The notes under the pieces are model-generated. The model ran no database searches and had not been told where the DNA came from. It worked only from the letters and a program-made list of their open reading frames with translations. The position numbers were made by a program, and so were the translations under genes. 52,382 bases of DNA from a virus (taxonomy: Duplodnaviria > Caudoviricetes). Below, piece by piece: positions 1,345-45,986 of the stretch. The stretch's first letter is position 1, and every line of letters begins with the position of its first letter. The DNA is taken from positions 1 through 52,382 of IMG/VR virus record IMGVR_UViG_3300034175_000204; one strand, given 5' to 3'.

Positions 1345-1508
1345 GTCGACTGTTCCCTGATGTATTTGGCTTTTGCTTCGCCGGTGATGGTAAAGAGCCC
1401 GAGGGCGCCGAGCAGGTCTAGGTCGCCGGGCTCCAGACGCACGCCCTTGCCGATTTCGGCGGCGCGACTGAGCTTCTGATCGAGCTTGATGATGGAGGGG
1501 GCGTTCAA
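1170..1508 (-). CDS. Small hypothetical protein upstream of int (xis position)
   Basis: TTG start at 1508 coupled to the upstream stop, GGAGA RBS; overlaps the 5' end of int. Confidence 0.5.
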   Translation of the reverse strand: MNAPSIIKLDQKLSRAAEIGKGVRLEPGDLDLLGALGLFTITGEAKAKYIREQSTCRDARRRSIVGGNTGSGGTSARTEPAGAHTSPSSGTTQTRDASEARARARPMKATPS

Positions 1509-3046
1509 CTCGGGTCTCCCATGAGCCCAGGCGCGAGGCCCAGCTTCTTGTGGTGGTCGGAGATCAGCTCGGCCGCCTTTAGCTCGGCCACGCGGCCGCT
1601 GAAGGCACCGCCGGTCGGGACCATGTTGGCGAGTGCGGCGAGCTGCTGACGCGTGACAGGCCGCGGGTGGACGTCGGCCATGAGTTTGAGCAGCCGGCCG
1701 GCAGCGCCAAGGCGCTGGGCCCACCAAGCGACTAGCGCAGGGCCGGGCTCAGGCATTGACGGCACCGATCCGCCTGCCGCGGCGACGCCACTGTCAGTGG
1801 CGTACCAGCGGCCGTCGCGGCGCTCGATCCAGCCCGCTTCGACGAAGCGCCGACGACGGGCGTTCCACGCGCCGCCTTTGCGACTGTAGCCCGCACGTGC
1901 CGCCCATGCCGCCTCGGTCAAGCCGGCCGGGTGGATGGCCGCGAGGGTGCCGAGCGCGCCGAAATCGGAAGCGGACGCCCGAGCCGTCGCCCGGGCGTCC
2001 TCAACGGCGGACGTCGCCTCCGTGCCCTCCGCCGCTGTCCCGGAATCGGGTTCGGCACCCGAAACTGCATCGCTGGAATGCATGTTTGCATTCCCCGCCA
2101 GCGCCTCCTCGAGGCGCGCCACCCGCTCGAGCAACTGCTCCCATGCTCGAGGAGATGTGGCTTCTGCCTCGGCGATCGGATCGGCTGGCCCCTTTCCGGC
2201 GGCGAGGGCCTCCGCCAACGCGGCGAAGTCGACATCGGCGAGCGCCTGGGGCTCGGCTGCGTCGACGCCGGCGATCGGCGCGGCCGAGCTGTCGAAGGTC
2301 GTCAGCGCCGGAGAGCAGCCGCGCTCGAGCACGCTTTCGACCGGGCTGTAGACCCAGCGCTCGCCGCGCTTCAGCCCCGCAAGTGAGCCGAGGACCTGTT
2401 TGCGGGTCGCAGCATCCGCGTGGCTCTTCAGATATCGGTCGATCGGCGCCTGATCTTGCGGTGCGATCAGCCGGTGGATCACCATCGTCTGCGCCAGCGC
2501 GAGCACCGACTTGGCGATGTCGGCCGGCCGCTGGGTGATGACGGTCAGCACGAAGCCGCGGATGCGGCCGCGCTTCGCGATCCACGCGAGCGCCCGCCTC
2601 AGCTGGAACGCGTCGCTGTCTGGTACCAGCTCGGGCGCGAGCTCGTCGGCCTCATCGATGACGAGGTGCAGGTTGCCGATCGACTTGGTCCGCATTCGGG
2701 AGATGAAGGCGAGCGAAAAGGCGCGCTGCTCCTCCTCGTCCATCTCGCTGAGGTCGAGGATGGCCGAAACGCGCTGATCTATTAGCAGCTCGGCAACGCG
2801 CACGCCGTCGTCGGCGTCGATCGGCGCGTTCGCGTGCAGACCTCCGAAGATCGGGATGCGCACACCCGGGCCGTCGCCGGCGGCGTTCGACTGCATGCCC
2901 CACCACGCGCCGGTCGGATCGAGCACCACCACCTGGCGACCATCGACTAGCAGCTGCTCGACATAGCCCTTGCCGGTGACCGTCTTGCCGGCGCCAGTGG
3001 TGCCGACGATCGCCGTGTGCGTCTCGAGGAAGGCTGGGACGCTCAC
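1505..3046 (-). CDS. HerA/FtsK-like (DUF87) P-loop ATPase with C-terminal winged-helix-like repeats
   Basis: Walker A GTTGAGKT, VVLDPTG, Walker B LVIDEA, KRGRIRG, ITQRPA; GTG start at 3046 coupled to the upstream stop. Confidence 0.8.
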   Translation of the reverse strand: MSVPAFLETHTAIVGTTGAGKTVTGKGYVEQLLVDGRQVVVLDPTGAWWGMQSNAAGDGPGVRIPIFGGLHANAPIDADDGVRVAELLIDQRVSAILDLSEMDEEEQRAFSLAFISRMRTKSIGNLHLVIDEADELAPELVPDSDAFQLRRALAWIAKRGRIRGFVLTVITQRPADIAKSVLALAQTMVIHRLIAPQDQAPIDRYLKSHADAATRKQVLGSLAGLKRGERWVYSPVESVLERGCSPALTTFDSSAAPIAGVDAAEPQALADVDFAALAEALAAGKGPADPIAEAEATSPRAWEQLLERVARLEEALAGNANMHSSDAVSGAEPDSGTAAEGTEATSAVEDARATARASASDFGALGTLAAIHPAGLTEAAWAARAGYSRKGGAWNARRRRFVEAGWIERRDGRWYATDSGVAAAGGSVPSMPEPGPALVAWWAQRLGAAGRLLKLMADVHPRPVTRQQLAALANMVPTGGAFSGRVAELKAAELISDHHKKLGLAPGLMGDPS

Positions 3047-3261
3047 GCCAGGGCACCCGCGGCGATCATCGCCGATACCGTGATCTCGGCGGTCATGCGC
3101 GGGCGAACGTCGCCGGGCGCGCCGATTCCCACGACGCCAAGCACCTGCGGAGAGACGTCGACCTGGGTGAAGATCACTGGATCGATTTCGGACACCCATC
3201 GGCCGAGCAGATCGACCAGCGCGCGGCGGCGAAGATCCTGATACGTCTTGGCCGCGTTCAC
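3043..3261 (-). CDS. Hypothetical protein
   Basis: Translationally coupled ORF in the leftward operon. Confidence 0.55.
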   Translation of the reverse strand: MNAAKTYQDLRRRALVDLLGRWVSEIDPVIFTQVDVSPQVLGVVGIGAPGDVRPRMTAEITVSAMIAAGALA

Positions 3262-3542
3262 GCCCGCCGCCTCACGGCGAAGCCCAGGCGGCGGCGCGCT
3301 GCTCCATTCCGAAGGGTGCGGCCCCGAGGTCCAGCTTCACGATCGGACGCGGTGCCGCCGCCCCGGGGCTCGAGGCTCGGGGCTCGGGGCTCGGGGCTCG
3401 GGGCTCGGGGCTCGGGGCTCGGGGCTCGGGGCTCGGGGCTCGGCGGGGACGTCGCCGGTGGCGCGGCTGCGTCAAGCCCCAGCCGCCGGCGCTGCCACGG
3501 TGCGAGCTGGCGGCGCGCGATGCGGACGCGCAGCGCGCTCAC
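3258..3542 (-). CDS. Hypothetical protein containing a heptamer tandem repeat (SPEPRAP)n
   Basis: Start and stop coupled to its neighbours. Confidence 0.45.
   Translation of the reverse strand: MSALRVRIARRQLAPWQRRRLGLDAAAPPATSPPSPEPRAPSPEPRAPSPEPRAPSLEPRGGGTASDREAGPRGRTLRNGAARRRLGFAVRRRA
3364..3440. repeat. Tandem repeat (CGGGGCT)x11, unit 2 is CGAGGCT
   Basis: 77 bp read directly from the sequence. Confidence 0.95.
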
Positions 3543-3796
3543 AGCGCCAGCTCCGGCTCGTCGCCGAGCTCGGCGAATATGTGGCGAGGCACGCGATACG
3601 CGAGGACGTCGGTCCAGCGGATGTCGCCCGCCTCACGCGGCGGCTTCAGCTCGCAGGCGAGCGTGACAGTCTCGACCTCGACGTCGCGCTCGAGATTCGG
3701 CCACTCCCAAGCGTTCAGACGACGGAAGCCGCGCATGGCGAGGAAGCTGTCGAGCGGCCAATCGAGGCCGGCGGCGCGGATCGTGGCTGCGGTCAT
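3539..3796 (-). CDS. Hypothetical protein
   Basis: Coupled ORF with protein-like composition. Confidence 0.6.
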   Translation of the reverse strand: MTAATIRAAGLDWPLDSFLAMRGFRRLNAWEWPNLERDVEVETVTLACELKPPREAGDIRWTDVLAYRVPRHIFAELGDEPELAL

Positions 3797-4113
3797 GCCG
3801 CGCCCCGAGCGCTTGCGCGCTGCTGCTCGATTTCCGCGAGCGTCTTCAGATAGTCCGGCTTCAGCTCTCCGGCCTGCATTCGGATCAGGTCCGCGAAGGT
3901 GTCGAAGATCTCGGCCGGGTCAGTGTCCGGCTTCCTGATCTGCATCGCGACCATCACCGCGGCACCGAGCACGCCCGCGGCGATCTTCATCATTAGGACC
4001 GTCGTGTCGTGAGAGCCGAGGACGTGCTGGGCGAGCCTCATCTCGCGCTGGAGATCGTCCTGCAGCTTGCGCGTGATCTTGCGGCCGAGATCGGCGAGGA
4101 TCTGCTCGCTCAC
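3793..4113 (-). CDS. Hypothetical protein
   Basis: Coupled ORF, helical composition. Confidence 0.65.
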   Translation of the reverse strand: MSEQILADLGRKITRKLQDDLQREMRLAQHVLGSHDTTVLMMKIAAGVLGAAVMVAMQIRKPDTDPAEIFDTFADLIRMQAGELKPDYLKTLAEIEQQRASARGAA

Positions 4114-6047
4114 TCTGCCGCCTCGATCAGTTCGAGGACGACCGATTCATCGGCCGGGCCCGGATCGCCGACGCCGCCGCCCTCCTGAGGCGGGGTGAAC
4201 GCCAGCAGAGGGTGTACCCAATCGTCCGCCGCGGCGCGGCAGCGGCGGGGGACGGCGTGGCCGGCGCCGTTCAGCGCCTGGGCGAGCAGGATGGTAAGTT
4301 CATCCGCCTTCGCCTTGCTCCACCGCGCGAGGCTGCCGGCATCGATGAGCGGTTCGGCGATCGCGAGCTGCTGCGCCTTCGGGAAGAGCGCCAGAAACTC
4401 GGCCGTCGGCGACCAGAGCGTGCGGATCGTGGCGGGGGTGCCGCGCGTCATCGCCGCGACCGCGGCGTGCGCCCGATGATCGAACCCAGGCGCGGCGGCG
4501 CTCCGCTCCAGCAGCAGTCCGGCGAGCACCGCACCGGCCAAGCGGCGATGCTGCTCGCCGGCGTTCAGGAAGTTGATGAACGCCGCGTCGTGATCCGCCT
4601 CGGTCATGAAGGTCTCGGCTGCGAGATCCTTCACCGCTGCCGTCCAGACGCAATGCGCCTGCTGCTCCTCGACCCGCTCGCGCGCGAGCTCGAACCCTGC
4701 GGTGGTGGTGCCGACCTCGTGATCGCTCGGGTTCGCCGCGCGCAAGCCCACCTGCTGGCGGGTCAGCAGCGTGCGCAGCTGCGCCCAGACCGCGTAGCTG
4801 CGGCCGACCTCACCACCGCGCTGCGCGTCCTCGACGATCAGCGCGCGCAGGGTCTCGCGGCGGACCGCGCGGATGGCGAACAGCGCCTCGGCCGACACGC
4901 CGTGCTCCTCGCGCGCGGCCGCCTTGGCAGGCTGGCCGTAGGTGTACGGGTCAGTGAGCGCTGCCGCGCCCTCCGCCCTGGGCGCACTCGCCCTGGTCTC
5001 GGCCTTGCCGGCTGGGCTGCCGTGCTTGGCCTTGCGGCTTTCCCACCAGTAGCTGACCTGCGGCTCGCCGGATTCGGTGACGTCGACCCAGGCGACAACG
5101 CCGTCGGCGATCTCCAGGCCACCGCCGACCTTCGCCCTAACGCTGGCGCGCAGCGTCTCGTCGGTGCCGCCGTAGCCGTTGCGCGGGGGCGCATCGACGA
5201 AGCGCAGGTCGGGGCGGGTCGAAAGCCGCGTCTGCACCTTGACCTGCTCGAGCCGCTCCTGGGCGAGCTTGGCGAGCAGGCCCTCGTCGACGACGCGGCC
5301 ACGCTGCTCCGCCTCATCGGCGAACAGGTCCAACTCGAAGCGTCCGCCAGCGGCGCGGTAGGCATCATCGCCGACCAGGCGGAGCCGGCGAAGGCCCGCG
5401 CGATCGCCAATCTTCATCGCCGCGCGGATCTTCTCAGGCGTGCGCAGGTAGGGATCGAGGTTGCGCAGCTGCTCGAACGTGGCAAGCTGCAGCTGCTGGT
5501 CTGCCGTTGCGGCATAGGCCCGCGCGGCGTCGATCGACAACTCGCCCTGGCTCAGCGTCTCGAAGATCGGCGGCGCGAGCTGACCGACGCGCATCTGGCG
5601 CCGCACGCGGTCGAGCGGCTGGCCGAGTGCGATGGCGATCGCCTCCGCGCTCTCACCCTTGGCAGCGAGACTGGCGACCGCTGCGCACACCTCATAATCC
5701 TGAAGATCGCGGCGCTGGATGTTCTCGCCAAGCGACAGCTCGATGATCTCGATATCGCTGTAGCCGCGATAGACCTCGACGCGGACCGGCCAGTCGGCCG
5801 GCAGGTCGCCGCGCGCCACCAGGTTCTTGATCGAGCGCGCGCGACGGCCGCCGGCGAAGGCGCCGAATTTCTTCGAGCCAAGCATCGGGTGGACGTTCAG
5901 CGGCTGGATCAGGCCGCGGCCGAGGATCGACGCCTCCATCGCGCTGAGCTCGACGATGTCCTTGCGGTGTCGGCGCACGTTGAACCGACTGACCTCGATC
6001 TGGTCGATGGTCATGGTTTCGGAGGTTCTGGTCTGGGTGCTAGGCAT
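4110..6047 (-). CDS. ParB/RepB/Spo0J-family protein (long form)
   Basis: SILGRGLIQPLNV, AGGRR, SLGENIQRRDL, followed by an HTH. Confidence 0.85.
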   Translation of the reverse strand: MPSTQTRTSETMTIDQIEVSRFNVRRHRKDIVELSAMEASILGRGLIQPLNVHPMLGSKKFGAFAGGRRARSIKNLVARGDLPADWPVRVEVYRGYSDIEIIELSLGENIQRRDLQDYEVCAAVASLAAKGESAEAIAIALGQPLDRVRRQMRVGQLAPPIFETLSQGELSIDAARAYAATADQQLQLATFEQLRNLDPYLRTPEKIRAAMKIGDRAGLRRLRLVGDDAYRAAGGRFELDLFADEAEQRGRVVDEGLLAKLAQERLEQVKVQTRLSTRPDLRFVDAPPRNGYGGTDETLRASVRAKVGGGLEIADGVVAWVDVTESGEPQVSYWWESRKAKHGSPAGKAETRASAPRAEGAAALTDPYTYGQPAKAAAREEHGVSAEALFAIRAVRRETLRALIVEDAQRGGEVGRSYAVWAQLRTLLTRQQVGLRAANPSDHEVGTTTAGFELARERVEEQQAHCVWTAAVKDLAAETFMTEADHDAAFINFLNAGEQHRRLAGAVLAGLLLERSAAAPGFDHRAHAAVAAMTRGTPATIRTLWSPTAEFLALFPKAQQLAIAEPLIDAGSLARWSKAKADELTILLAQALNGAGHAVPRRCRAAADDWVHPLLAFTPPQEGGGVGDPGPADESVVLELIEAAE

Positions 6048-13696: not shown

Positions 13697-13854
13697 GCGA
13701 GCCGGCGCAGCGGCGAGGCGGCAGCCGTTCGCCGCTGCGCCCCGATCGCCAGGTGACGTTCCGGCTTGGCTGGGTGCATGTCGAGGCGGCCGCGCTGGGG
13801 CTGGCGATGCTCGCGTCGGCGATCGTCGCGGTCATGGGCTGGCTCGATGTGTAA
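13693..13854 (+). CDS. Small membrane protein
   Basis: GTGA overlap; C-terminal TM segment. Confidence 0.45.
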   Translation: MSEPAQRRGGSRSPLRPDRQVTFRLGWVHVEAAALGLAMLASAIVAVMGWLDV

Positions 13855-14464
13855 CCGCGCGCGCAACCGGGCCGAGCCGGAGACGCTGTTCGCGACCTTC
13901 GGCGGCGGGTGGCTGAGCGACAAGCCGATGGACAACCGGTTCAACCCGGTCGAGCTGGTGCCGCGCGGCCGGGCCTATGTCGTTCGGCGCGAGAGCGGGG
14001 CGATCGGCGTCGACGTCATGAGCTGGGATTTGCTCGGCGGCAGCGCGGCCTATCCCATCACCAACGTGCGCGACCTGAAGCGATGGCGGCCGCGGCTGGA
14101 GAAGCCGGAGGGCCGGTGCATCATTCCGCTCACCGAGTTCTGCGAGTGGACGCCGGATAAGCACGACATCGGCGGCGGCAAGCCGATCAAGGGCGAGATG
14201 TGGTTCGACGTCGTCGACCAGGACGTGTTCGCTGTTGCGGGCGTGTGGCAGCAGCTGGGCGACAAGCGCTGGTTCGCGATGCTGACGTGCGACGCGAACC
14301 CGCTGGTCGAGCCGATCCATCCGAAAGCGATGATCACGATCCTGGCGCCGGAGGATCACGAGCGTTGGCTGACCGGGAGCTACGACGACGTCCTGGCGCT
14401 GCAGCGGCCGTATCCGGCCGAGGCGATGACGGTGCGGGGGCCGGTGTTTCCGACGCGAGAATAA
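13847..14464 (+). CDS. SOS response-associated peptidase (SRAP/YedK/HMCES)
   Basis: N-terminal MCNR, RCIIPLTEFCEW, FAVAGVW, IHPKAMITIL. Confidence 0.9.
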   Translation: MCNRARNRAEPETLFATFGGGWLSDKPMDNRFNPVELVPRGRAYVVRRESGAIGVDVMSWDLLGGSAAYPITNVRDLKRWRPRLEKPEGRCIIPLTEFCEWTPDKHDIGGGKPIKGEMWFDVVDQDVFAVAGVWQQLGDKRWFAMLTCDANPLVEPIHPKAMITILAPEDHERWLTGSYDDVLALQRPYPAEAMTVRGPVFPTRE

Positions 14465-14489
14465 TCGACCCGCACGTTCGAAATAGCGC

Positions 14490-14546
14490 TTGCAAGGACC
14501 GGAAAGCGGTCTTATACAGTTCTCACGGCGGGCGACGGGCCCGCCG
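14490..14546 (+). promoter_or_regulatory. Sigma70 promoter with an inverted-repeat operator and a 5'UTR hairpin
   Basis: TTGCAA-N17-TATACA; GACCG-N5-CGGTC in the spacer; CGGCGGGC-GACGG-GCCCGCCG at 14526-14546. Confidence 0.65.
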
Positions 14547-14567
14547 ACCTCCAGATGGAGACGGACG

Positions 14568-14807
14568 ATGACGCAGACCGACACCACCACCATCGACTTT
14601 AACGCCATCGACTATGCAGCGACGGCAGCGGCGATCGCGCGGTATCTGACCGGCTTGGATGCTTGGGGCCAGGAGGGGCAGACGGGATCGCTGATGCGCG
14701 GCATCTGCGCCGACGTGCTGGCTGCCAAATATGTCCTGGATGCCGACGTGATCGGCAACAGCTTCGTGGGCTGGACACGGCACCGCGGTCTCTTGGTGGC
14801 GGCGTGA
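14568..14807 (+). CDS. Small hypothetical protein (candidate anti-defence)
   Basis: GGAG RBS; first gene after the promoter. Confidence 0.6.
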   Translation: MTQTDTTTIDFNAIDYAATAAAIARYLTGLDAWGQEGQTGSLMRGICADVLAAKYVLDADVIGNSFVGWTRHRGLLVAA

Positions 14808-15127
14808 TCCGCCGGAAAAGACCATATCGCCGGCTCGCTCTGAAGATTGCGCCGGATGCCATCGGCTGGACGCTGATGAACGCCACGCCCCCACCCCATG
14901 CGCTGACCCGCGCGGCGATCGATGGCGATCCCATTGAGGCACTGCTGGAGAAAGCGGCGCAGGGCCGGGCGGCAGGGGCGCGGAGCATCTTTCTGTACCG
15001 TTATTCGCGCGAGACGTTCGGGATGCGTCGCAACGGGATGACCTTCCACGAGCACGAGGCCCTGATCCCGCGCGCTGTAATCGCGCTTCATGATGCAGGT
15101 TACACGGTCGATTTCGAGGACGTATGA
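14804..15127 (+). CDS. Hypothetical protein resembling the C-terminal domain of the downstream Aca2/YdiL-like protein
   Basis: GTGA coupling; manual alignment. Confidence 0.6.
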   Translation: MIRRKRPYRRLALKIAPDAIGWTLMNATPPPHALTRAAIDGDPIEALLEKAAQGRAAGARSIFLYRYSRETFGMRRNGMTFHEHEALIPRAVIALHDAGYTVDFEDV

Positions 15128-15513
15128 TGACGCCAGCCGAACTCGACACGCGCCGCCGCATGCTCGGCTTGTCTGTGGACGAGACTGCGGCGCTTTGCGG
15201 GGTGCAGGATCGCCAGATCCGGCGGTGGCAGTCGGGAGCGCAGCCGATCGCGCGCGACGTGCCGGCGAGGCTGGAGGCGCTGGAGGAAGCGATGGAGCAC
15301 GCCGTCGAAGAGATCGTCGCACTTGCGACCGACAAGGTGCTGGATGGGCCTGTCACCCTGTGGCGATACCGCACGGCGGCGGACCAGGCGCAGAGTCCGA
15401 ACGCGCGCGGCATCCCGCTTGGCGCCCACGCGATGCTTACCGCCTGGGCGGCGGATGCGCTGGCAGCCGAAGGGATCGACGTGACCATCGAATGGGCAAG
15501 CGTCGATGCCTGA
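15124..15513 (+). CDS. Aca2/YdiL (DUF1870)-like HTH regulator
   Basis: MTPAELDTRRRMLGLSVDETAALCGVQDRQIRRWQSG..PI..DV...L; LWRY motif. Confidence 0.7.
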   Translation: MMTPAELDTRRRMLGLSVDETAALCGVQDRQIRRWQSGAQPIARDVPARLEALEEAMEHAVEEIVALATDKVLDGPVTLWRYRTAADQAQSPNARGIPLGAHAMLTAWAADALAAEGIDVTIEWASVDA

Positions 15514-15548
15514 TCATCGTCTAGCGTCCCGCGTGATGATACGGAACC

Positions 15549-15590
15549 TGTCGCGTGACACTTGACGAATAGGCGTTGCCGTGCGACACA
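15549..15590 (+). promoter_or_regulatory. higBA promoter/operator
   Basis: Palindrome TGTC-GCGT-GACA, related site TGCCGTGCGACA, -35 TTGACG. Confidence 0.55.
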
Positions 15591-15596
15591 AGGTGC

Positions 15597-15884
15597 ATGG
15601 AAATCGCGAGCATCACCCACAAGGCGCTCCGCCGATTCGCCGAGACAGGCTCGACCAAGGGCCTGCCTTCGGAGTTCGTCGGGCGTCTGACCGGCATGCT
15701 TGCGTTCCTTGCGGACGCGGGATCCATCGAGACGCTCAAGCTGCCGCCCAATTACGGGGCGCACGAGCTGAAGGGCGACCGGGCGGGCACATGGTCGCTG
15801 ATCGTCTCACGCAACTGGCGCATGACATTCGGCCTCGACGAGGTCGGAGCGATCGTCGATCTGGACTTGGAGGATTATCACTGA
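15597..15884 (+). CDS. higB: HigB (RelE/ParE-family) toxin
   Basis: I.SI.HKALRRF...H.LKGDRAGTWSLIVSRNWRMTF...DLEDYH. Confidence 0.9.
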   Translation: MEIASITHKALRRFAETGSTKGLPSEFVGRLTGMLAFLADAGSIETLKLPPNYGAHELKGDRAGTWSLIVSRNWRMTFGLDEVGAIVDLDLEDYH

Positions 15885-16186
15885 TGGGCATCACGCTTCA
15901 CTGGTCGATCGCGGTTCATCCCGGCGACTGGCTTAAGGCCGAGATCGTAGAGCCGCACGGCCTTAGCGTCACCGACGCGGCGGGGCTGCTCCATGTATCG
16001 CGCCAGGCGCTCAGCACGCTGCTGAACGGCCGCGCAGACTTGTCGCCCGCAATGGCGATCCGGTTCGAAAAGGTGTTCGGCATCGATGCCGACACGCTTT
16101 TGCGAATGCAGACCCGATGGGACATCAAGCAGGCGCGCGAGCACCAGGACGAGATCATCGTCGAGCGCTCGCTGGTTGCGGCGTGA
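15884..16186 (+). CDS. higA: HigA antitoxin
   Basis: HPGDWLKAEI...VSRQALSTLLNGRADLSPAMAIRF. Confidence 0.9.
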   Translation: MGITLHWSIAVHPGDWLKAEIVEPHGLSVTDAAGLLHVSRQALSTLLNGRADLSPAMAIRFEKVFGIDADTLLRMQTRWDIKQAREHQDEIIVERSLVAA

Positions 16187-16373
16187 TCGCACACGCCGAC
16201 GTAAGGTAAGCGGGTATCGGCGGGGTACCGGTGCCCGGACGCGCTGCCCGACCCACGCATTTCCGCGGCTCCACTCGACCGTGGCGGAGGGGTTATCCGC
16301 CGCGGTTGCATGGCCGCTTTCCTACAGTTCTCAATTCACGCTATGTTCCGATGCGGGGGTGTAGCGAAGACTG

Positions 16374-16751
16374 ATGGGAGCGCCTTTTCGTCCAGTAGCA
16401 CCAGCCGCACCGCTTCGCCGCGACGAGGTGCTCGCGTTCCTCGTCGAGCGGATCGCGCGAACCGGCATCTGCCCGACCATCGCGGACGTCGCCGCGGGAA
16501 TGGAGCTCAGCAACGCGCGTGTGCGCGAGCTCGTCGGGCAGCTGGTCGAGCGCGGCATCATCGAGAAGACGCCAGGAGCGCAGCGCAACCTGCGCGTGCG
16601 CGACGTCGCGCATTCGCGATCGATCGTCATGCAGACGATGCTGCGGCTTGGCTGGCCGATCGCTGAGCCGATGGGCGCGCTGCAGCAGCCCTGCCCGAAA
16701 GAGCAGCTACCGATCATGCCGCCGTTCGAGCATCTGCCCGACTTCGACTAG
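16374..16751 (+). CDS. LexA DNA-binding-domain protein without peptidase domain
   Basis: RRDEVLAFL...TGICPTIADVA....LVERGIIEKTPGAQRNL. Confidence 0.75.
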   Translation: MGAPFRPVAPAAPLRRDEVLAFLVERIARTGICPTIADVAAGMELSNARVRELVGQLVERGIIEKTPGAQRNLRVRDVAHSRSIVMQTMLRLGWPIAEPMGALQQPCPKEQLPIMPPFEHLPDFD

Positions 16752-18925: not shown

Positions 18926-19546
18926 ATGGATTTGGCGGGATACAGACCGACGCTGAGTGAAGTGGCGGCGCTCTTCGGCAAGTCGTCGCGCTGGATATCC
19001 GACCTGCGTGCCAAGGGTGAACTGCCCGGAGATGGTGGTTCGCTCGGCGAGTTCGTCGCGGCCTGGACGAGCCTGTCGGCGGGGTCCAGCGGCGGCAAGT
19101 CGATCGATCAGCACAAGGCGCGGCTCGCCGCGGCGAAGGCCGACCAGGCGGAGATGAAGAACGCGCAGACGCGCAGCGAACTGTTGCCGCGCACGCTGGT
19201 GACGCTTGCGGTCCAGAGCGCCTTCGCCCGGGTTCGCTCCAAGCTGCTCGCGATGCCGAGCCGGTGCGCCCCGCAGATCGTGTCGATGAAGTCGGCGGTC
19301 GCGATCGAGGCGAAGCTGACGGAGCTCGTCCATGAAGCGCTTGCCGAACTCGCGGCCACGACGGTCGGGGTTGAAGAAGCGGGCGCTGATCGCGGTAATC
19401 GCGATGCACCTGGTGGCGAGCCAGGAGCTGGCGGCGACGGCGACGGACTGGTGGCCGGTGATGACACCGCCGCCGCGGCTGACCGTGAGCCAGTGGGCGG
19501 ACGGGAACAGGATCCTAAGCCCGGAAGGCGCCGCCGAACCGGGTAA
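18926..19546 (+). CDS. terS: Terminase small subunit (Nu1-like)
   Basis: N-terminal wHTH, KARLAAAKADQAEMKN..EL, RSKLLAMP. Confidence 0.8.
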   Translation: MDLAGYRPTLSEVAALFGKSSRWISDLRAKGELPGDGGSLGEFVAAWTSLSAGSSGGKSIDQHKARLAAAKADQAEMKNAQTRSELLPRTLVTLAVQSAFARVRSKLLAMPSRCAPQIVSMKSAVAIEAKLTELVHEALAELAATTVGVEEAGADRGNRDAPGGEPGAGGDGDGLVAGDDTAAAADREPVGGREQDPKPGRRRRTG

Positions 19547-21377
19547 GTGGGATACCTCCCGCGCTGAGTATCAGCGCGGGATCATGGACGCGGTCGCCGA
19601 GCCGCTGAATGACGAAGTTGTCGTGATGAAGTCCGCCCAGGTCGGGTGGACCGAGATCATCGGCAACATTGTCGGCTATTTCGTCGACCAGGACCCGGCA
19701 TCGATCCTGGTCGTCCAGCCGACGCTCGACATGGCGGAGGCTTGGTCGAAGGACCGGCTGGCCCCGATGGTGCGCGACACCGCGTGTCTTACGAAGAAGA
19801 TCTCGGACGCCAAGTCGCGCGACAGCGGCAACACCGTCCTGCACAAGAAGTTCGCCGGCGGGCAGCTGACGATCGCCGGGGCGAACAGCCCGGCTAGCCT
19901 CGCGTCGCGGCCGATCCGTGTCGTGCTTGCGGACGAAGTCGGGCGCTACCCGGCGTCGGCTGGGACCGAGGGCGACCCGCTCACGCTGGCGTACAAGCGG
20001 ACGAACAATTTCTGGAACCGCCGCAAGCTGGCGGGGTCGACGCCGGGGATCGCGGGCGTCTGCCGGATCGAGGCGAAATACCTCGAGAGCGACCAGCGCC
20101 GCTTCTTCGTGCCATGCCACGCCTGCGGCGCGGTCCAGGTGCTCCGCTGGGACCGGGTTCGCTGGGAGAAGACGAAGGCCGGCGCACACCGGCCAGAGAC
20201 GGCGCGGTATCATTGCGAGCATTGCGAGGAGCCCTGGGACGACGCCGATCGCGGCGGCGCAGTTCGTCTAGGCGAGTGGCGTGCCACCGCACCGTTCAAG
20301 GGGATCGCGGGCTTCCACGTCTGGGAGGCCTATTCGCCCTGGGTAAAGCTCGGCGACACGGTGAAGGCATTCCTCGAAGCGAGGAAGTCGCCGGAGACGC
20401 ACAAGGTCTGGGTCAATACCGCGCTCGGCGAGACCTGGGTCGAAAAGGGCGAGGCGCCCGACTGGCAGCGGCTGTACGACCGGCGGGAGACGAGCATGGC
20501 GCTCGGGACACCACCGGACTGGGCGGCGCTGCTGGTCGCCTCGTGCGACGTGCAGCGCGGCGGCGGCGGGCGCATCGAGTGCGACATCTGGGCGTTCGGG
20601 GCCGGCCGCAAGCGGGCGCTGGTCGAGCATATCGAGATCGACGGTGCAATCGCCGAGGCGGTCACCTGGGCGCAGCTGGACACGGTGGTCGCGCGCGACT
20701 GGATCACGGCCGACGGCCGATCGCTGAAGCTGACCCGGGTCGGGGTCGATTCGGGCGATGGCGAGAACACCATGCACGTCTATGCCTGGTGCCGTCGCCA
20801 CACGGGCCTGGCGATGGCGCTGAAGGGGCGGGACACGCTGTCGGCGGCGCAGGCGATCGCCGGGCCGACCTGGGTCGACGTGACGCTCGCGGGGCGCAAG
20901 CTCCGCAAGGGCGTGCGGCTCTGGACGGTCGGCACGTCGATGCTGAAGACCGAGATCTACGGCGACCTGCAGCTGGAGCGCCCGGTCGACGGGGAGAGCT
21001 TTCCAGACGGTTACATCTTCCTGCCGGACGGCACGTCAGACGAGTGGGTCAAGCAGCTGGTCGCGGAGCAGCTGATCCTGGTGCGGAACAAGCGGACCGG
21101 GCGCACCCGACGCGAGTGGCAGCAGACGCGGCCGCGCAACGAAGCGCTCGACAATGCGGTGTACGCGCGGGCGATCGCGATCAGCCTGGGCGTCGACCGG
21201 TGGACCGAGGCGAAATGGGCGCAATTGCTCGGGGCGCGGCGGGTGGCGGCCGCGAGGCCGGTGCGGGTCCAACCGGAACCAGCCGAAGTGGTGGCGGCCG
21301 AAGCGGCGACCGCGGCCTCGGCCGCAAAGATCAATCGACTGACGGGCCGCGCACGCGGCTCGTTCCTGAGGAGGTAG
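19404..21377 (+). CDS. terL: Terminase large subunit (lambda gpA family); start approximate
   Basis: PPRLTVSQWAD, KSAQVGWTE, LADEV, STP, SDQRRFFVPC, RNEALD. Confidence 0.95.
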   Translation: MHLVASQELAATATDWWPVMTPPPRLTVSQWADGNRILSPEGAAEPGKWDTSRAEYQRGIMDAVAEPLNDEVVVMKSAQVGWTEIIGNIVGYFVDQDPASILVVQPTLDMAEAWSKDRLAPMVRDTACLTKKISDAKSRDSGNTVLHKKFAGGQLTIAGANSPASLASRPIRVVLADEVGRYPASAGTEGDPLTLAYKRTNNFWNRRKLAGSTPGIAGVCRIEAKYLESDQRRFFVPCHACGAVQVLRWDRVRWEKTKAGAHRPETARYHCEHCEEPWDDADRGGAVRLGEWRATAPFKGIAGFHVWEAYSPWVKLGDTVKAFLEARKSPETHKVWVNTALGETWVEKGEAPDWQRLYDRRETSMALGTPPDWAALLVASCDVQRGGGGRIECDIWAFGAGRKRALVEHIEIDGAIAEAVTWAQLDTVVARDWITADGRSLKLTRVGVDSGDGENTMHVYAWCRRHTGLAMALKGRDTLSAAQAIAGPTWVDVTLAGRKLRKGVRLWTVGTSMLKTEIYGDLQLERPVDGESFPDGYIFLPDGTSDEWVKQLVAEQLILVRNKRTGRTRREWQQTRPRNEALDNAVYARAIAISLGVDRWTEAKWAQLLGARRVAAARPVRVQPEPAEVVAAEAATAASAAKINRLTGRARGSFLRR

Positions 21378-23069: not shown

Positions 23070-25133
23070 ATGGCTGAACTCCTGATCTACGGGATCGTCG
23101 GCGACAGCTGGGACGGTCTCGACGCGGCGACGCTCGTGCCCGCGATCGCGGCGGTCGACGGCGACCTCGACGTACGCATCAACTCGCCGGGCGGTTACGT
23201 CATGGACGGGCTGGCGATCGTCAACGCGCTCGCACGGCACAAGGCGAAGGGTCATAAGGTCACCTGCCACGTCGACGGGCTTGCCGCGTCGATGGCGTCC
23301 GTGCTCGCCGTCGTCGGCACCGACGTCGTCATGGCCGACAACGCGCTGATGATGATCCACAACCCGTGGACCTGCGCGTGCGGCGACGCCGCCGAGCTGC
23401 GCCAGGAGGCCGACAAGCTCGACCTGCTGCGCGACCAGATCGTCAAGCTCTACACCGCGCGAACAGGTCTGACGGCCGAACAGCTGCAGCCGATGCTCGA
23501 GGCCGAGACCTGGCTGACGTCGGAGCAAGCGCTCGCGCAGAAGTTCGTAACCGCGATCGCGCAGGCGCTGCCGGCGGTCGCCGCCTCGTTCGTGAAGCCC
23601 TTCGGGTTCCGCAAGGCCCCCGAGACCCCGTTGATCTCGCCGGTGGCGATGTCGCGGACCCCCAGGACGGCCGACGCCGCTCCGCCCACTCGCCAGGAGA
23701 ATTCCATGTCCCAGGAAACCCCGGGCGGCGGCAATCCGACGCCGCCGACCACGCCGACCTCGCCGACCAACGCGCCCGACGCCCAGGCAATCGCCACCCA
23801 GGCCGTCGCAGCGGAGCGCACGCGCGCTGCCAGCATCCGGACGGCCGTGAACAAGGCGGGTCTGCGCACCGATTTCGCCGAGGAGATGGTCAATGCCGGC
23901 ACCTCGATCGAGGATGCGCGCGCCAAGATCATCGACAAGCTGGCGGACGCGAATGACGCGACCACTCCGCGCAACCAGGCGCCGATCGCGGTCGGCACCG
24001 AGGCGCGCGAGAAGATGCTCGTCGGCGCGCGCAACGCGCTTCTCGCCCGCGCCGGGCTGACTGGCCTGGTCGCGGCGGCGGCGTCGAAGAAGAAGGAGAC
24101 GATCGACCTGGATCCCGGCGAGTTCCGCGGCATCCGCAACGTCGAGCTCGCACGCATGTCGCTGGAGATGGCGGGGATCTCGTGCCGGAGCTATGACCGC
24201 GACAAGATCGTCGGGGATGCACTGACCGCGCGCAACGCGATCACGCAGACGACCAGCGACTTCCCGCTGCTGCTCGAGAACGTGATGCACAAGGTGCTGC
24301 AGGCCGCCTATGCGCTGGCGCCCGACACCTGGTCGCGCGTCTGCGGCATCGGCTCGGTGAACGATTTCCGCCCGCACAACCGCTATCTGCGGGGCACGTT
24401 CGGCGCGCTCGACCGGGTCAACGAGGCCGGCGAGTTCAAGAACAAGCCGATTCCGGACGCCGCCAAGGAGCTGATCTCGGCGCTGACGAAGGGCAACATC
24501 ATCGCGCTTTCGCGCCAGGCGATCGTGAACGACGACATGGACGCCTTCTCGGGGCTGACCGTCGACCTCGGCCGCGCGGCGAAGCTGTCGATCGAGATCG
24601 ACTTCTACGCGCTGCTGGCGCTCAACGCGGGGCTGGGCCCGGTGATGAACGACGGCAAGACGTTCTTCCATGCGGATCATGGCAATATCGCGGTCGCCGG
24701 GGCACCTTCGGTCGCGGCGTTCGACGCACTTCGCGTTCTGATGGCACGTCAGAAGGACGTGAGCGGCAACGAGTTCCTCGACATCCGGCCGGCCGTCGGC
24801 CTGTTCCCCGTCGAGTTGGGCGGCGCCGCGCGCACGATCAACGACGCGCAGTATGACCCCGACACGGTCAACAAGCTGCAGCGGCCGAACATGGTGCGCG
24901 GCATGTTCTCCGACATCGTCGACACGCCGCGGCTTTCCGGGGCGCCCTGGTACGGCTTTGCCGACCCGGACGTCGCGCCAGCGGTCGAGGTCGTGTTCCT
25001 CAACGGGGAGCAGGAGCCGTTCCTGGACACGCAGGAGGGCTGGCGCGTCGACGGGACCGAGATGAAGGTCCGCCATGATTACGGCGTCGGCGCGGTCAAC
25101 TCGCGCTCCGCCGCGCGCAACGCGGGCGGGTAA
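23070..25133 (+). CDS. ClpP-like prohead protease/major capsid fusion
   Basis: INSPGG, GLAASMAS, MIHNPW; TTSDFP.LL, SRQAIVNDD. Confidence 0.92.
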   Translation: MAELLIYGIVGDSWDGLDAATLVPAIAAVDGDLDVRINSPGGYVMDGLAIVNALARHKAKGHKVTCHVDGLAASMASVLAVVGTDVVMADNALMMIHNPWTCACGDAAELRQEADKLDLLRDQIVKLYTARTGLTAEQLQPMLEAETWLTSEQALAQKFVTAIAQALPAVAASFVKPFGFRKAPETPLISPVAMSRTPRTADAAPPTRQENSMSQETPGGGNPTPPTTPTSPTNAPDAQAIATQAVAAERTRAASIRTAVNKAGLRTDFAEEMVNAGTSIEDARAKIIDKLADANDATTPRNQAPIAVGTEAREKMLVGARNALLARAGLTGLVAAAASKKKETIDLDPGEFRGIRNVELARMSLEMAGISCRSYDRDKIVGDALTARNAITQTTSDFPLLLENVMHKVLQAAYALAPDTWSRVCGIGSVNDFRPHNRYLRGTFGALDRVNEAGEFKNKPIPDAAKELISALTKGNIIALSRQAIVNDDMDAFSGLTVDLGRAAKLSIEIDFYALLALNAGLGPVMNDGKTFFHADHGNIAVAGAPSVAAFDALRVLMARQKDVSGNEFLDIRPAVGLFPVELGGAARTINDAQYDPDTVNKLQRPNMVRGMFSDIVDTPRLSGAPWYGFADPDVAPAVEVVFLNGEQEPFLDTQEGWRVDGTEMKVRHDYGVGAVNSRSAARNAGG

Positions 25134-34661: not shown

Positions 34662-37382
34662 ATGGCCGATACTGCCGCTCGCCTCGCGCTTACCGCGCGG
34701 CGCAATGAAGTCTGCCGCTTCACGATTACCGTGACCGGGATCAACCTGACCGGCGTCGTCATGGCGATGCAGGTCAGGCTCGGCCGCGACGTGCCCGGAG
34801 TGCCGCTGATCCAGCTTGCGACGGTGTCGACGCTGGCGGCGGAAGGCCTGAAGCTGGACAGCGTGACGACGACCGGCGGCATCCCGACCAGCGTCATCAA
34901 GGGCAGGATCAATCAGGCGACGATGGCGGATGCCACCAAGGTGCCGTACGCCGGCGAGGTCGGCGACGACACGGTGCTCGCTTATGCGATGGTGTGGACG
35001 CTGGACGGGGACACGCGGACGCGGCTGCATGGCGATTTCATCGTGCAGGCGTCGGCCTATAATTCCGACGACGCGCCGACGAACCGGCCGCTCGGCTATG
35101 GGGCGCCGCGGGTCCTGACCGGATCGAGCGGCGGCGCGCTGACCTTCGGCGACCAGATCGTCAAGGTGTCGATCGGCGGCGTCGAGGAACTCGCTCCCGT
35201 GATTGCCGAGTCAGCGGCGGCGGCGGCGGCAGCGACCGCGGCGGCTGAGACGCTTTCGGATGCGGCAGTGGCAGTGCTGAGGTTCGACAAAGCGCGGCTC
35301 TACGGCGGCGGCTCCGCACCTGCCTGGCTGCGGCTGCTCTGGCTCGCGCAGGATGACGGCTGGGCCCACCTCTACGACCCGACGAACCCGGAGACACGGA
35401 TCACCGCGACCGACGCGGACGGGGTCACGGCCATTTCGTCGGTCGGTGATGGCATGGGGACCTGGATGGCGGCGGTGCAGGCGAACGGAGCCGCGCAGCC
35501 GCAATTGTGGGAAGGCTATTTCGGAGGGCTGTCGGCGCTCGGGTTCACGGCGATTGATAACGACGAGGACGTGCCCCACTTCCTGAAAACCGCCAGCAAC
35601 ACCGGCGTCAACTATCCGTTTTTCGTCATGATCGTCGGCCAGTATGCGGGGACGCAGACCAGCGCAATCGCGGCCAATGGACAAGGCGCGTTTCGCTATC
35701 TGTTCGACGGGCGCAGCCCGACCGGCACGCTTAACTCGGCGTTTCTAACCGCTGGCAACAATGTACCCGCGGTGATGAACGCGCGGGGCGGGCAGGACTT
35801 CAGCGCTCGCGCGGACCTTCCCGCCTTGGGGACGCCAATCGACCACGACGCGCATGTCTGGGGTATCCTATACGGCGGCGCGGCCTCCAAAATCTATCAG
35901 GACGGAGTTGTGGTTTATGAGGGCGACCTCGGCAATTACGCACTGACCGGGTTCACCTTGGGCGCACCCGCCAATGCCGCGACGCGAGAAAAGCAATGGC
36001 ATGGCGCGATCGGAGCCGCTGCGCTCTACGTCGGCACTCCGCCGGACGCCAAGATCGCGCGCATGACGGCGCTGCTACGCTCGATGATCCGCAAGACGAA
36101 CTTCGGCGTCCAGTTATGGATGGGCGGCGGCGAAACGGACGCTTACACCCTGCGCGCCAGCGTCGGGGTGAATGTGACCGATGGCACATATCGGCTGGCG
36201 GCATCGCGCTATCCCGACATGCGCGATCCGATCATCGGCGAGCCGGGGGTGCTGGCTGCTGGTGCCGACGCATTCCTGTCTAGCGGTTACGCGCAAATGA
36301 CCGTGACCGGCCTGCGGCCCGGCACGCAATATTACACCGCGGTTCATGCCGAGGGACAACTCCAGCCCTGGCCCCGCGGCAAAGCACGAACGCCAGCGCT
36401 ACCGGGCACCTCGTTCTCCTGCGCTTTCGGAAGCTGCGAAGAAACCGCTTCCAACCATGCCGTGTTCGACGCCATCGGCACGATGGCGGACACCCGGCCG
36501 CTGCAATTCTTCATGCATCTGGGTGACCACGGCTACCGCGACTACAGCTCGCCGTCTGAAACGTCCTACCTTTTCAATCTGGCGGCGCAGCACCACCATT
36601 TGCGGCAGGCCCGGCTGATCCGCAACATGCGGATGCACTACATCCCCGACGATCACGACAGCGACAAGCAAGGCTCGCTTACCACCAACGCTGACCCGAA
36701 CCGGCCCCACAGGCTTGCACTGCTCAGCGCGCTCAAGAAACGTGTGCCGCTCGGGCTTGCCGACGCCAGCGCCTTCTCCGGCTTCTATTCGTCATGGCAG
36801 GAGGGCCGCGTGCTTTTCGTCGCGACCGACTGCCGCACGATCCGCACCGCGGAAGCCACGATCGACAACTCGTCCAAGTCGATGCTCGGTGCGGTGCAAA
36901 AGGCGTGGCTCAAGGCCCGGTTCGGCTATGCCAAGGCGCAAAAGCTGGCGGTCGTCTGGTTCAACGGGTGCGCGCTGCACTCTCCCCAAAACGATAGCTG
37001 GAACGTATACCAGACCGAGCGCCGCGAGATCGTCGATTACATCAAGGCGCTCGGCATGGTCGGACGGGTCGCCTACGTCGCTGGCGACCTTCACAACAGC
37101 GGCATCGACAGCGGCGTAAACGGTGACTTCGCGACCGGCGGCGGGTGCCCTATTCCGCAGTTCATCGCCTCGCCGCTCGACAAGGCCACCAACGCGCTTG
37201 GTCCGACTGTTTTCAGCGAGGGCGCGGTGGGCGGGGTCAACGGCCAATTCGGCGTCATGGATGTGGCCGATGATGGCGGCAGCACGCTCGGCATCCAGTG
37301 GACTGCCTATCGCACGACCAGCGCGAGCGATCCGACTCTGATCCAGACCCTGTCCTACGCTTTCACGATGACGCTGCCATGA
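34662..37382 (+). CDS. Tail fibre/receptor-binding-position protein with LamG-like and C-terminal PhoD-like metallophosphatase domains
   Basis: GLRPGTQY, FGSC, HLGDHGY, DDHD, DCR, MLGAVQKAWL, DSW, GDLH. Confidence 0.75.
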   Translation: MADTAARLALTARRNEVCRFTITVTGINLTGVVMAMQVRLGRDVPGVPLIQLATVSTLAAEGLKLDSVTTTGGIPTSVIKGRINQATMADATKVPYAGEVGDDTVLAYAMVWTLDGDTRTRLHGDFIVQASAYNSDDAPTNRPLGYGAPRVLTGSSGGALTFGDQIVKVSIGGVEELAPVIAESAAAAAAATAAAETLSDAAVAVLRFDKARLYGGGSAPAWLRLLWLAQDDGWAHLYDPTNPETRITATDADGVTAISSVGDGMGTWMAAVQANGAAQPQLWEGYFGGLSALGFTAIDNDEDVPHFLKTASNTGVNYPFFVMIVGQYAGTQTSAIAANGQGAFRYLFDGRSPTGTLNSAFLTAGNNVPAVMNARGGQDFSARADLPALGTPIDHDAHVWGILYGGAASKIYQDGVVVYEGDLGNYALTGFTLGAPANAATREKQWHGAIGAAALYVGTPPDAKIARMTALLRSMIRKTNFGVQLWMGGGETDAYTLRASVGVNVTDGTYRLAASRYPDMRDPIIGEPGVLAAGADAFLSSGYAQMTVTGLRPGTQYYTAVHAEGQLQPWPRGKARTPALPGTSFSCAFGSCEETASNHAVFDAIGTMADTRPLQFFMHLGDHGYRDYSSPSETSYLFNLAAQHHHLRQARLIRNMRMHYIPDDHDSDKQGSLTTNADPNRPHRLALLSALKKRVPLGLADASAFSGFYSSWQEGRVLFVATDCRTIRTAEATIDNSSKSMLGAVQKAWLKARFGYAKAQKLAVVWFNGCALHSPQNDSWNVYQTERREIVDYIKALGMVGRVAYVAGDLHNSGIDSGVNGDFATGGGCPIPQFIASPLDKATNALGPTVFSEGAVGGVNGQFGVMDVADDGGSTLGIQWTAYRTTSASDPTLIQTLSYAFTMTLP

Positions 37383-44560: not shown

Positions 44561-44762
44561 TGCCTTTGCAGAGAGCGGGTATCGCACCCGTTCTCTGCGG
44601 GTATCGGGGGCCCTCACAGGCGCAGAATTGCGCCACCACGGCGGATCGGACCTCCGCCGCGCTCCACATTAAATCATGTGTTCCGCGCCGATCGCCACGG
44701 CCGGCGCGGCCTGGCTCGGGTCGATCGACGCGGGGCGCCTCCTCTCACAAACCGAGGTTAAC

Positions 44763-45986
44763 ATGCTCACCAACGCCGACCTCAAGAGAGTGCGGACGCG
44801 TGATCGCGCCTACAAGCTGGCCGACGCCGGCGGCCTCCATCTCTACGTCGCACCGACAGGGCTGAGGTCCTGGCGGTGGCGCTTCCGCCTCGGCGGAAAG
44901 GAGCAGCTGCTGACGATCGGCGGCTTTCCGGACGTCTCCCTCGACGCAGCCCGGGCCCAGCGTGATCGCGCGCGTGAGCAGCTCGGCCGCGGCGAGGATC
45001 CGCGCGCGGCTGCGAGCTCCGACGATTCGCGAGTTCGTGCTTTCGAGTATGTCGCCCGGGGCTGGCTAGCGCACATGCGCCCGCGCTGGACCGAGGTGCA
45101 TGCGGCCGACGTGCTCGCCAGCCTCGAGCGCGACGTCTTCCCCGCGATCGGCGCCATGCCGATGGGCGCCATCACCACGCCGGTGGTGCTGAACGCCCTG
45201 CGCTCAGTCGAGCAGCGCGGCCGCCTCGAGACGGCCCGACGCGTGCGTCAGCGGATCTCGGCCGTGTTCGCCTTGGCGATCGCCCAGGGTCTGGTCGAGC
45301 ATGATCCAGCGGCGATCGTCGGCAAGGCGCTGATGCCGCCGGCACCACCGCAGCATCATGCCGCGCTCCTCGACGTCGATGACGCGCGCGAGCTGCTCGC
45401 GGCGGCCGAGCTGGTCGACGCGGCGCCTGTGATCAAGCGGGCGTCACGCTTCCTGGCCCTCACGGCCGTGCGCCTCGCGGCGGTCCGCGGCGCGTGCTGG
45501 TCCGAGATCGAGGACCTCGACGGCCTAGCGCCGCTGTGGCGCGTGCCTGCCGCGCGCATGAAGCTGAAGGCGGCGAAGAAGCTCGATTCGAGCAACGACC
45601 ACCTGGTACCGCTGTCGCGCCAGGCGGCCGAGCTGCTGCGCGAGATCCGCGACGAACACGTTGCCGGCGCCGGCAACCTGTTCTTCCCGGGTCGCCTCGC
45701 CGGCCGGCCGATCGGTGAGGCGGCGATCGGCGACCTCTACGATCGCGCGGGCTTCGCCGGCCGTCACGTGCCGCACGGCTGGCGCGCGACCTTCTCGACG
45801 ATCCTCAACGAGCGCTTCCCGGACCAGCGAGGCCAGATCGACCGCGCGCTAGCCCACGCCAGCGGCGCCCGGGACAAGGTGGAGGAGGGCATCAACGCGA
45901 AGGTGGAGGGCGCGTACAACCGCAGCCAGCAGCTGGCACCGCGGCGCGAGCTCTTCCAGGCCTGGGCAGACGCGCTGGTCGGGTGA
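44763..45986 (+). CDS. Second tyrosine integrase (P4-like, with arm-binding domain)
   Basis: YKLADAGGLHLYV...G.FPDVSL; TAVR, RMK, HGWR, LAH, GAYN. Confidence 0.9.
   Translation: MLTNADLKRVRTRDRAYKLADAGGLHLYVAPTGLRSWRWRFRLGGKEQLLTIGGFPDVSLDAARAQRDRAREQLGRGEDPRAAASSDDSRVRAFEYVARGWLAHMRPRWTEVHAADVLASLERDVFPAIGAMPMGAITTPVVLNALRSVEQRGRLETARRVRQRISAVFALAIAQGLVEHDPAAIVGKALMPPAPPQHHAALLDVDDARELLAAAELVDAAPVIKRASRFLALTAVRLAAVRGACWSEIEDLDGLAPLWRVPAARMKLKAAKKLDSSNDHLVPLSRQAAELLREIRDEHVAGAGNLFFPGRLAGRPIGEAAIGDLYDRAGFAGRHVPHGWRATFSTILNERFPDQRGQIDRALAHASGARDKVEEGINAKVEGAYNRSQQLAPRRELFQAWADALVG

Follow-up and report, generated by a model that had tools for sequence, protein, structure and literature searches.

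The window examined here, meaning the whole stretch of DNA that was analysed, is an IMG/VR provirus record (IMGVR_UViG_3300034175_000204) of 52382 bases with 68% G+C, which contains phage structural and integration genes (terminase, portal, capsid, tape measure and integrase). At 14490-15513 it carries a compact cassette in which a promoter-like site with an internal inverted repeat and a leader with two predicted hairpins precede two small genes, orfA and orfB, and a helix-turn-helix (HTH) regulator gene, orfC, of the Aca2/YdiL family. The features of the cassette are as follows.

14490-14495, plus strand: -35-like hexamer TTGCAA.
14497-14511: candidate operator GACCG-N5-CGGTC, with arms GACCG (14497-14501) and CGGTC (14507-14511), within the 17-nt promoter spacer.
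14513-14518, plus strand: -10-like hexamer TATACA.
14526-14546, plus strand: hairpin 1 of the 5' untranslated region (5'UTR), a perfect 8-bp stem (14526-14533/14539-14546) with a 5-nt loop.
14549-14560, plus strand: 5'UTR hairpin 2, CUCC-AGAU-GGAG, with arms 14549-14552 and 14557-14560.
14568-14807, plus strand: orfA, 79 aa, acidic (isoelectric point (pI) 4.6), candidate anti-defence cargo.
14804-15127, plus strand: orfB, 107 aa from GTG 14804 or 83 aa from ATG 14876, second candidate cargo.
15124-15513, plus strand: orfC, 129-aa Aca2/YdiL-family HTH protein, presumed autorepressor.

A first-pass annotation of this stretch had described a TTGCAA-N17-TATACA promoter with GACCG-N5-CGGTC in its spacer, an 8-bp 5'UTR stem-loop before the ribosome-binding site (RBS), and coupled genes for a 79-aa, a 107-aa and an HTH protein. 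All of these lie where it placed them: the stem is perfect, and the genes overlap by GTGA (orfA/orfB) and ATGA (orfB/orfC), with the start of orfB uncertain between GTG 14804 and ATG 14876. Hairpin 2, whose 3' arm is the ribosome-binding GGAG, was absent from that annotation. The operator repeat extends to imperfect 7-bp arms (14495-14513), and the transcript would start near 14524-14526.

The regulator, orfC, matches Pfam PF08965 (Aca2_YdiL, DUF1870) at E 2e-7 and 31.6 bits (cut-off 23.8), with residues 2-105 aligned to profile positions 1-105 of 118. In a word-indexed search, 5.8 billion proteins yielded 91 candidates, 13 of which, the window's own protein included, reached E <= 0.001; the 12 relatives are 56-74% identical, one of them being annotated from Sphingomonadales genomes, and PF08965 is matched by 12 of the 13 aligned members (E <= 0.001). 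Comparison of the 13-member profile with the PDB gave Aca2 structures as the best matches (7ezy, 1.5e-7; Aca2 of the Pectobacterium phage ZF40, 8w35 and 7vjo, 3.7e-5; 7b5j, 1.4e-4), beyond which came YdiL (1s4k, 2e-3) and SO3848 (0.011). These comparisons confirm, at the level of sequence, that orfC belongs to the Aca2/YdiL family. Arg30, Trp35 and Gly38 are invariant across the 13 aligned sequences, and Arg30 of ZF40 Aca2, whose mutation is described as abolishing repression and DNA binding (PMC6765145, PMC8633003), aligns with Arg30 of orfC.

Loci related to orfC were found in one viral contig (L026), in a metagenome-assembled genome (L002, genome G001) and in at least two 1-kb metagenome contigs (L027 and L028). 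The upstream region is contained in the window, L026 and L002, to which all promoter and leader comparisons refer; a fourth locus, L027, shows only the end of the upstream gene. Over the 140 bases before the first gene, the three loci align from just 5' of the -35 hexamer through the start codon with a mean column identity of 72%, and the common leader ends in GGAGAC, five bases and then ATGAC. An inverted repeat lies between the -35 and -10 hexamers in all three loci.

Window promoter: -35 TTGCAA, repeat GACCG-N5-CGGTC, -10 TATACA.
L026 promoter: -35 TTGGCA, repeat GTCCG-N5-CGGAC, -10 TAGAAG.
L002 promoter: -35 TTGACA, repeat TTCCG-N5-CGGAA, -10 TACATT.

Three of the seven arm pairs change on both sides with symmetry kept, and 95% of cells are paired, compared with 30-51% when the partner is slid by 1-3 columns. 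The leader behaves differently. The sequence of hairpin 1 is kept in L026 and L002 with 1-2 unpaired positions (87.5% of cells paired), and hairpin 2 has the equivalents CUCC-ACU-GGAG in L026 and CUCU-GAG-GGAG in L002, with 4/4 pairs in 3/3 loci, one of them via G-U. These patterns are suggestive of leader hairpins conserved mainly as sequence and of a promoter repeat that behaves as a dimer-binding DNA site.

The regulators of these loci are 48-66% mutually identical, that of L026 being 66% identical to orfC. The genes in front of them (orfA, orfB, a 64-aa gene in L026, an 81-aa gene in L002 and a 58-aa C-terminal end in L027) showed no BLASTP match to one another at E <= 10. In L026, the 64-aa gene is an AcrIC5 homologue, matching Pfam PF22147 at E 2.8e-16 and 59.8 bits (cut-off 27) and the solved AcrIC5 structure 7yhr at E 9e-9 over its full length, with the regulator gene 30 nt 3' of it. 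Because an AcrIC5 homologue fills its cargo slot, the sister cassette L026 is regarded as a bona fide anti-CRISPR (acr)–aca operon, and the window cassette reads as acr-aca2-type with other genes in the Acr slot. The checks proposed in the first-pass annotation that sequence comparison can address came out in its favour: the hidden Markov model (HMM) comparison places the HTH protein in Aca2/YdiL, homologous loci do carry variable small genes in the cargo slot, one of them of the AcrIC5 family, and its interpretation as an acr-aca2-type operon is supported by the regulator family, the swapped cargo of the relatives and the repeat symmetry maintained through two-sided changes.

The two cargo genes differ in how well they are backed by relatives and models. 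Along the cassette, third-position G+C (GC3) is highest in the frame of each gene in succession (orfA 0.81, orfB 0.74, orfC 0.82). Among 1.84 billion representative proteins, orfA has three homologues of 71-74 aa (39-44% identity, E 5.6e-5 to 4.2e-4), and an AlphaFold2 model built with these homologues consists of three helices with a predicted local distance difference test score (pLDDT) of 88.6 and a predicted template modelling score (pTM) of 0.78; given its homologues and confident model, orfA is a genuine gene. VIA-align placed the orfA model closest to helical repeat proteins at a best Z of 6.1, under the tool's common level for helical bundles. orfA matches the AcrIC5 family neither in Pfam (E <= 0.1) nor through a BLASTP alignment to the L026 homologue (E <= 100), and a search of the Atlas gave no usable match for orfA or orfB. 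In the public protein collection, orfB matches nothing but its own entry, an 83-aa form with ATG 14876 as its start. Its single-sequence model has a pLDDT of 61.5, with an alpha/beta core and residues 1-38 mostly below 50, and the 83-aa start is mildly favoured because these first 38 residues are disordered in the model. Separately, a 931-aa metagenomic repeat protein (P0018) contains nine stretches that match orfA residues 4-33 (E 1.2e-11), in which a motif around IDF..NY recurs; it was set aside as an orfA homologue, the match being judged a short repeated motif and not whole-protein homology.

Within the window itself, the regulatory signals were compared with their background. GGACCG-N5-CGGTC at the cassette promoter is the only exact copy in the window; allowing up to 2 mismatches, the motif is not enriched (57 matches against 60.3 expected) and was not found before other window genes, which gives no indication of a regulon. 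Of the 52382 window positions, 134 have a perfect 5+5+5 repeat, corresponding to a chance of ~0.8% per given 17-nt spacer. The leader (14524-14570) folds at -24.5 kcal/mol with a z of -4.07, and 0 of 200 shuffles were as good; perfect 8-bp hairpins occur at ~0.5 per kb in this G+C-rich window. Rfam gave no match within 14300-15700. A consensus scan of 13800-16500 returned a sole promoter-like site, GTTACA-18-TATGAT at 15099-15128, which is probably due to chance because it spans the orfB/orfC junction and ends past the orfC start codon. Taken alone, the promoter, repeat and hairpin signals are modest, so the case rests mainly on the relatives, with positional conservation in two other loci being decisive.

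From these observations we favour, at somewhat better than even confidence, the reading that the locus is an acr-aca2-type anti-defence cassette carried in the early/accessory region of a siphovirus-like, temperate prophage whose host would be a sphingomonad-like soil bacterium, and that its cargo would most likely be host-defence inhibitors. Upon infection, the promoter at 14490-14518 would fire and yield one coupled transcript for orfA, orfB and the Aca2-family protein. As the regulator accumulates, its dimer would bind the repeat between the -35 and -10 hexamers and switch transcription off. Less firmly, the regulator may also bind both leader hairpins, the second of which holds the RBS, and block translation, as has been described for ZF40 Aca2. 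orfA and orfB, standing in the slot that AcrIC5 holds in L026, would most likely act as inhibitors of CRISPR-Cas or another host defence; this function is assigned to them solely by association, as a candidate one. In the description of acr-aca2 operons given by PMC13551039, a DNA motif lies over the promoter, the transcript starts 10-15 nt beyond it, an RNA motif extends from the start, and the distance to the acr start codon is fixed. The window repeat ends 11-15 nt 5' of the predicted start, where hairpin 1 begins, which is the layout given in PMC13551039, and this agreement is the reason for reading the cassette as a burst-then-shutoff switch.

Several observations weigh against this reading. 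Neither orfA nor orfB falls into any Pfam, PHROGs, NCBIfam or PADLOC family (E <= 0.1 in Pfam for orfA), orfB is an orphan for which no homologue was found in the protein collection, and the orfA model retrieved nothing by Foldseek at E <= 0.001 in the PDB (best 2.2) or BFVD (best 1.1), with no known Acr fold among its structural searches. The consensus promoter scan did not return TTGCAA-N17-TATACA; its threshold was 9 of 12 consensus positions, and by our own count the cassette promoter has 8 of 12, its second hexamer ending in A and not T. Hairpin 1 shows no compensatory, two-sided change across the three loci and is weaker in L026 and L002, whose leaders are not more stably folded than their shuffles (z -0.80 and -0.72), and the covariation of the promoter repeat comes from three sequences, with 18 of 500 shuffles reaching the observed score. 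Two of the three DNA-contact residues of ZF40 Aca2 described in PMC8633003 are changed in orfC: Tyr34 to Arg, which is invariant in the 13 relatives, and Arg39 to Ala, at a position that is variable elsewhere. These replacements appear to go in step with the changed half-site, which has a CCG core and a 5-nt spacer. Finally, Aca2/YdiL-like proteins are described outside anti-defence loci too (PMC8434428).

The same regulator and layout might instead serve other prophage accessory genes under a burst-then-off switch, for example in superinfection exclusion, host takeover or a lysogeny-related role. Such cargo would fit the lack of an anti-defence family or fold for orfA and orfB, the diverse contexts in which PMC8434428 places Aca2-like regulators, and the survey of PMC13551039, in which fewer than half of the 450 genes under predicted Aca1/Aca2 control have an assigned function. 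We nevertheless consider it rather unlikely: in L026 AcrIC5 occupies the same slot behind the same promoter, and the fast turnover of unrelated small genes beside a kept regulator is the pattern described for acr loci.

A toxin–antitoxin-like module of the MqsRA or HigBA type, with orfB (or orfA and orfB together) as toxin and the HTH protein as antitoxin and autorepressor, appears improbable. The ATGA overlap couples orfB to orfC, and orfC has weak similarity to antitoxins, namely the MqsA family TIGR03830 (E 0.0025 and 17.6 bits, below the cut-off of 61.8), MbcA (E 0.11) and an Xre antitoxin (E 0.15), the last two in the PDB. A toxin partner would be expected to be conserved, yet the upstream genes visible in four loci are all unrelated, one of them being an anti-CRISPR; the four family databases named above gave no toxin family for orfA or orfB, and a canonical HigB-HigA pair, distinct from the cassette, is adjacent at 15597-16186. 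It is this unconserved partner gene, together with the missing toxin family, that disfavours the module. Slightly less probable still is that one or both cargo frames are not genes and that the HTH protein is a stand-alone regulator with a long leader. The absent homologues, modest GC3 (0.74) and weak model (pLDDT 61.5) of orfB would agree with this, whereas for orfA there are three similarly sized homologues and a confidently predicted fold, the GC3 peaks follow all three frames, the start/stop overlaps are as in coupled operons, and the kept leader and RBS lie directly 5' of orfA, just as L026 and L002 have them ahead of their cargo genes. A non-coding orfA is unlikely, a non-coding orfB possible.

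The acr-aca2-type cassette sits in an early/accessory region of the window, bounded by an SOS-response-associated peptidase (SRAP) gene and by higB (15597), and its position can be followed from the neighbouring and reference genes below.

13928-14464: SRAP gene (PF02586, phrog_1599), directly 5' of the cassette promoter.
15597-16186: HigB-HigA pair; the HigB-like toxin matches PF05015 (E 1.4e-10), and higB overlaps the start of the HigA-type HTH antitoxin gene.
19332-21377: gpA-type large terminase.
44676-45986: tyrosine integrase.

The HigB-HigA pair begins 84 nt 3' of the aca-like gene orfC. Beyond it, a 125-aa protein (16374-16751) has a LexA-type DNA-binding domain only (PF01726, E 1.7e-7), with no peptidase domain, and may be the prophage repressor. 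Further window genes encode a lambda-type portal, a tape-measure protein, a Dam-type methyltransferase and a Mu Gam-like protein. A single 687-aa open reading frame (ORF; 23070-25133) fuses a protease domain of the ClpP type (residues 30-164) to a major capsid domain (388-683), and a 906-aa tail-region protein (34662-37382) contains a phosphatase domain resembling PhoD (PF09423, E 1.1e-9). Two minus-strand genes near the left end (1505-6047) encode a HerA/DUF87-type ATPase of 564 aa and a 645-aa protein in which a ParB N-terminal domain is combined with an HTH domain; they may be phage, plasmid-like or host defence genes. Other biocrust/soil metagenome runs from 2020 contain contig pieces identical to the window, some of which cover parts of orfA and orfB; among 151-281-nt contig pieces from four DNA runs (covering 13700-16700), many of them identical to the window, there was no cassette variant. 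This suggests a low-depth presence of the element in several samples, which may belong to one campaign.

The neighbourhood differs per locus: the window cassette lies beside SRAP and HigBA, that of L026 is flanked by an integrase and by a glycine-rich ORF of 649 aa, judged by eye to be a tail fibre, and that of L002 is near an ORF resembling lysozyme by eye. Just 5' of the L002 cassette promoter (3530-3724) is a gene for a 64-aa cysteine-rich protein with an EsV-1-7 motif (E 2.3e-5, just under the Pfam cut-off) and a match to phrog_29777 (E 1.5e-13). In L027, a 96-aa gene (554-844) overlaps the end of the aca-like gene and has weak similarity to families of phage resolvases and endonucleases (phrog_9019, E 0.013), with no Pfam match. 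The genome that holds the L002 cassette also encodes, at L037 (G001:C71, 7557-11846), a 1104-aa Cas9 with RuvC_III, HNH and REC domains, followed by Cas1; with Cas9 in G001, the 81-aa cargo of L002 is therefore testable as a type II inhibitor.

The orfC family is rare in the collections searched. By the ranks of G001, full-length relatives were found in at least 1 of 401 genomes of the order, at least 1 of 400 of the family and at least 2 of 401 of the class (G001 and one distant genome), counts that are floors because only part of the candidates was scored (10 in many genomes). Scans of viral contigs with orfC, the orfA alignment and the homologues P0021 and P0015 gave no further loci, nor did the first genome-contig scan; tblastn against phage GenBank records gave no match for orfC, and plasmids yielded only 36-42%-identical DUF1870 genes of Actinobacteria, none of which covered >=80% of the query. 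A leader-pattern scan of viral contigs returned, alongside L026, one further site (L034); it falls within a methyltransferase-like gene, no aca gene is close by, and it was taken as chance.

No source of new anti-CRISPR and anti-defence proteins has been more productive than the genes beside aca regulators, and to our knowledge few such proteins come from Alphaproteobacteria or soil phages. The association is unusually direct in this case, since in the sister element a known anti-CRISPR stands under this promoter, leader and regulator, which makes orfA and orfB well-justified anti-defence candidates. A more far-reaching proposal, which we hold tentatively and consider doubtful as a whole, is that orfA and its three homologues constitute a new anti-CRISPR/anti-defence family of phages of high-GC soil Alphaproteobacteria, that orfB is a second, unrelated inhibitor or a helper, and that the regulator represents a branch of Aca2 distinguished by an operator of its own (CCG-N5-CGG core) and by an RBS-hiding leader, the promoter-leader and the aca gene serving as constant arms for cargo swapping. 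Comparing the three operators also amounts to a small natural experiment in the joint change of an Aca2-type protein and its DNA site. Relative to known acr-aca2 operons, the operator variant and the pairing of AcrIC5 with an Aca2-family gene in L026 add little, and the cargo proteins belong to no known family. A 2026 survey scanned RefSeq and IMG/VR with Aca1/Aca2 motifs and reported 450 regulated genes (PMC13551039), and the window record may already be listed in its supplementary tables.

Among known systems, MqsA- and HigA-type antitoxins, which are small HTH autorepressors acting at promoter palindromes and encoded with a coupled partner gene, resemble orfC, but the similarities of orfC to them are all below family cut-offs and its partner is not conserved. 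YdiL (Salmonella) and SO3848 (Shewanella), both Aca2-fold proteins, share the Pfam family of orfC; their genes are described as chromosomal and outside prophages, standing alone or beside a conserved gene (PMC8434428), whereas orfC lies in a provirus behind variable cargo. AcrIC5, originally found beside aca1 in Pseudomonas aeruginosa, has been validated as inhibiting type I-C CRISPR-Cas (PMC7913775); this acidic protein is predicted to act by blocking Cas8c (bioRxiv 10.1101/2025.06.06.658234). orfA is likewise small and acidic, as is the L026 AcrIC5 homologue (pI 4.6 versus 4.1), and in contrast to the aca1 pairing described in PMC7913775, that homologue is paired with an Aca2-family gene.

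The closest counterpart is acrIF8-aca2 of the Pectobacterium phage ZF40, from which the window cassette departs in several respects. The HMMER alignment between the regulators contains few identities, and the profile match at E 3.7e-5 is confined to the N-terminal 62 positions; Tyr34 and Arg39 are not kept, and the operator has a CCG/CGG core with a 5-nt spacer compared with the TTCG-N6 described for ZF40. The second ZF40 repeat shares the TTCG core of the first, whereas the window hairpins do not repeat the operator sequence, and the window cargo consists of two genes without known family in a provirus whose host is high-GC and alphaproteobacterium-like. The two systems nonetheless have a regulator of the same Pfam family, encoded last in a short operon behind small cargo, with an inverted repeat between the -35 and -10 hexamers, a leader predicted to be structured by the RBS, and Arg30 kept. 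Their half-sites are alike as well (ZF40 GTTCG, L026 GTCCG, L002 TTCCG, window GACCG; ZF40 as given in PMC6765145 and PMC8633003), and the half-sites of Shewanella and Vibrio Aca2, described with a GGTC core (PMC8633003), also resemble those of the cassette.

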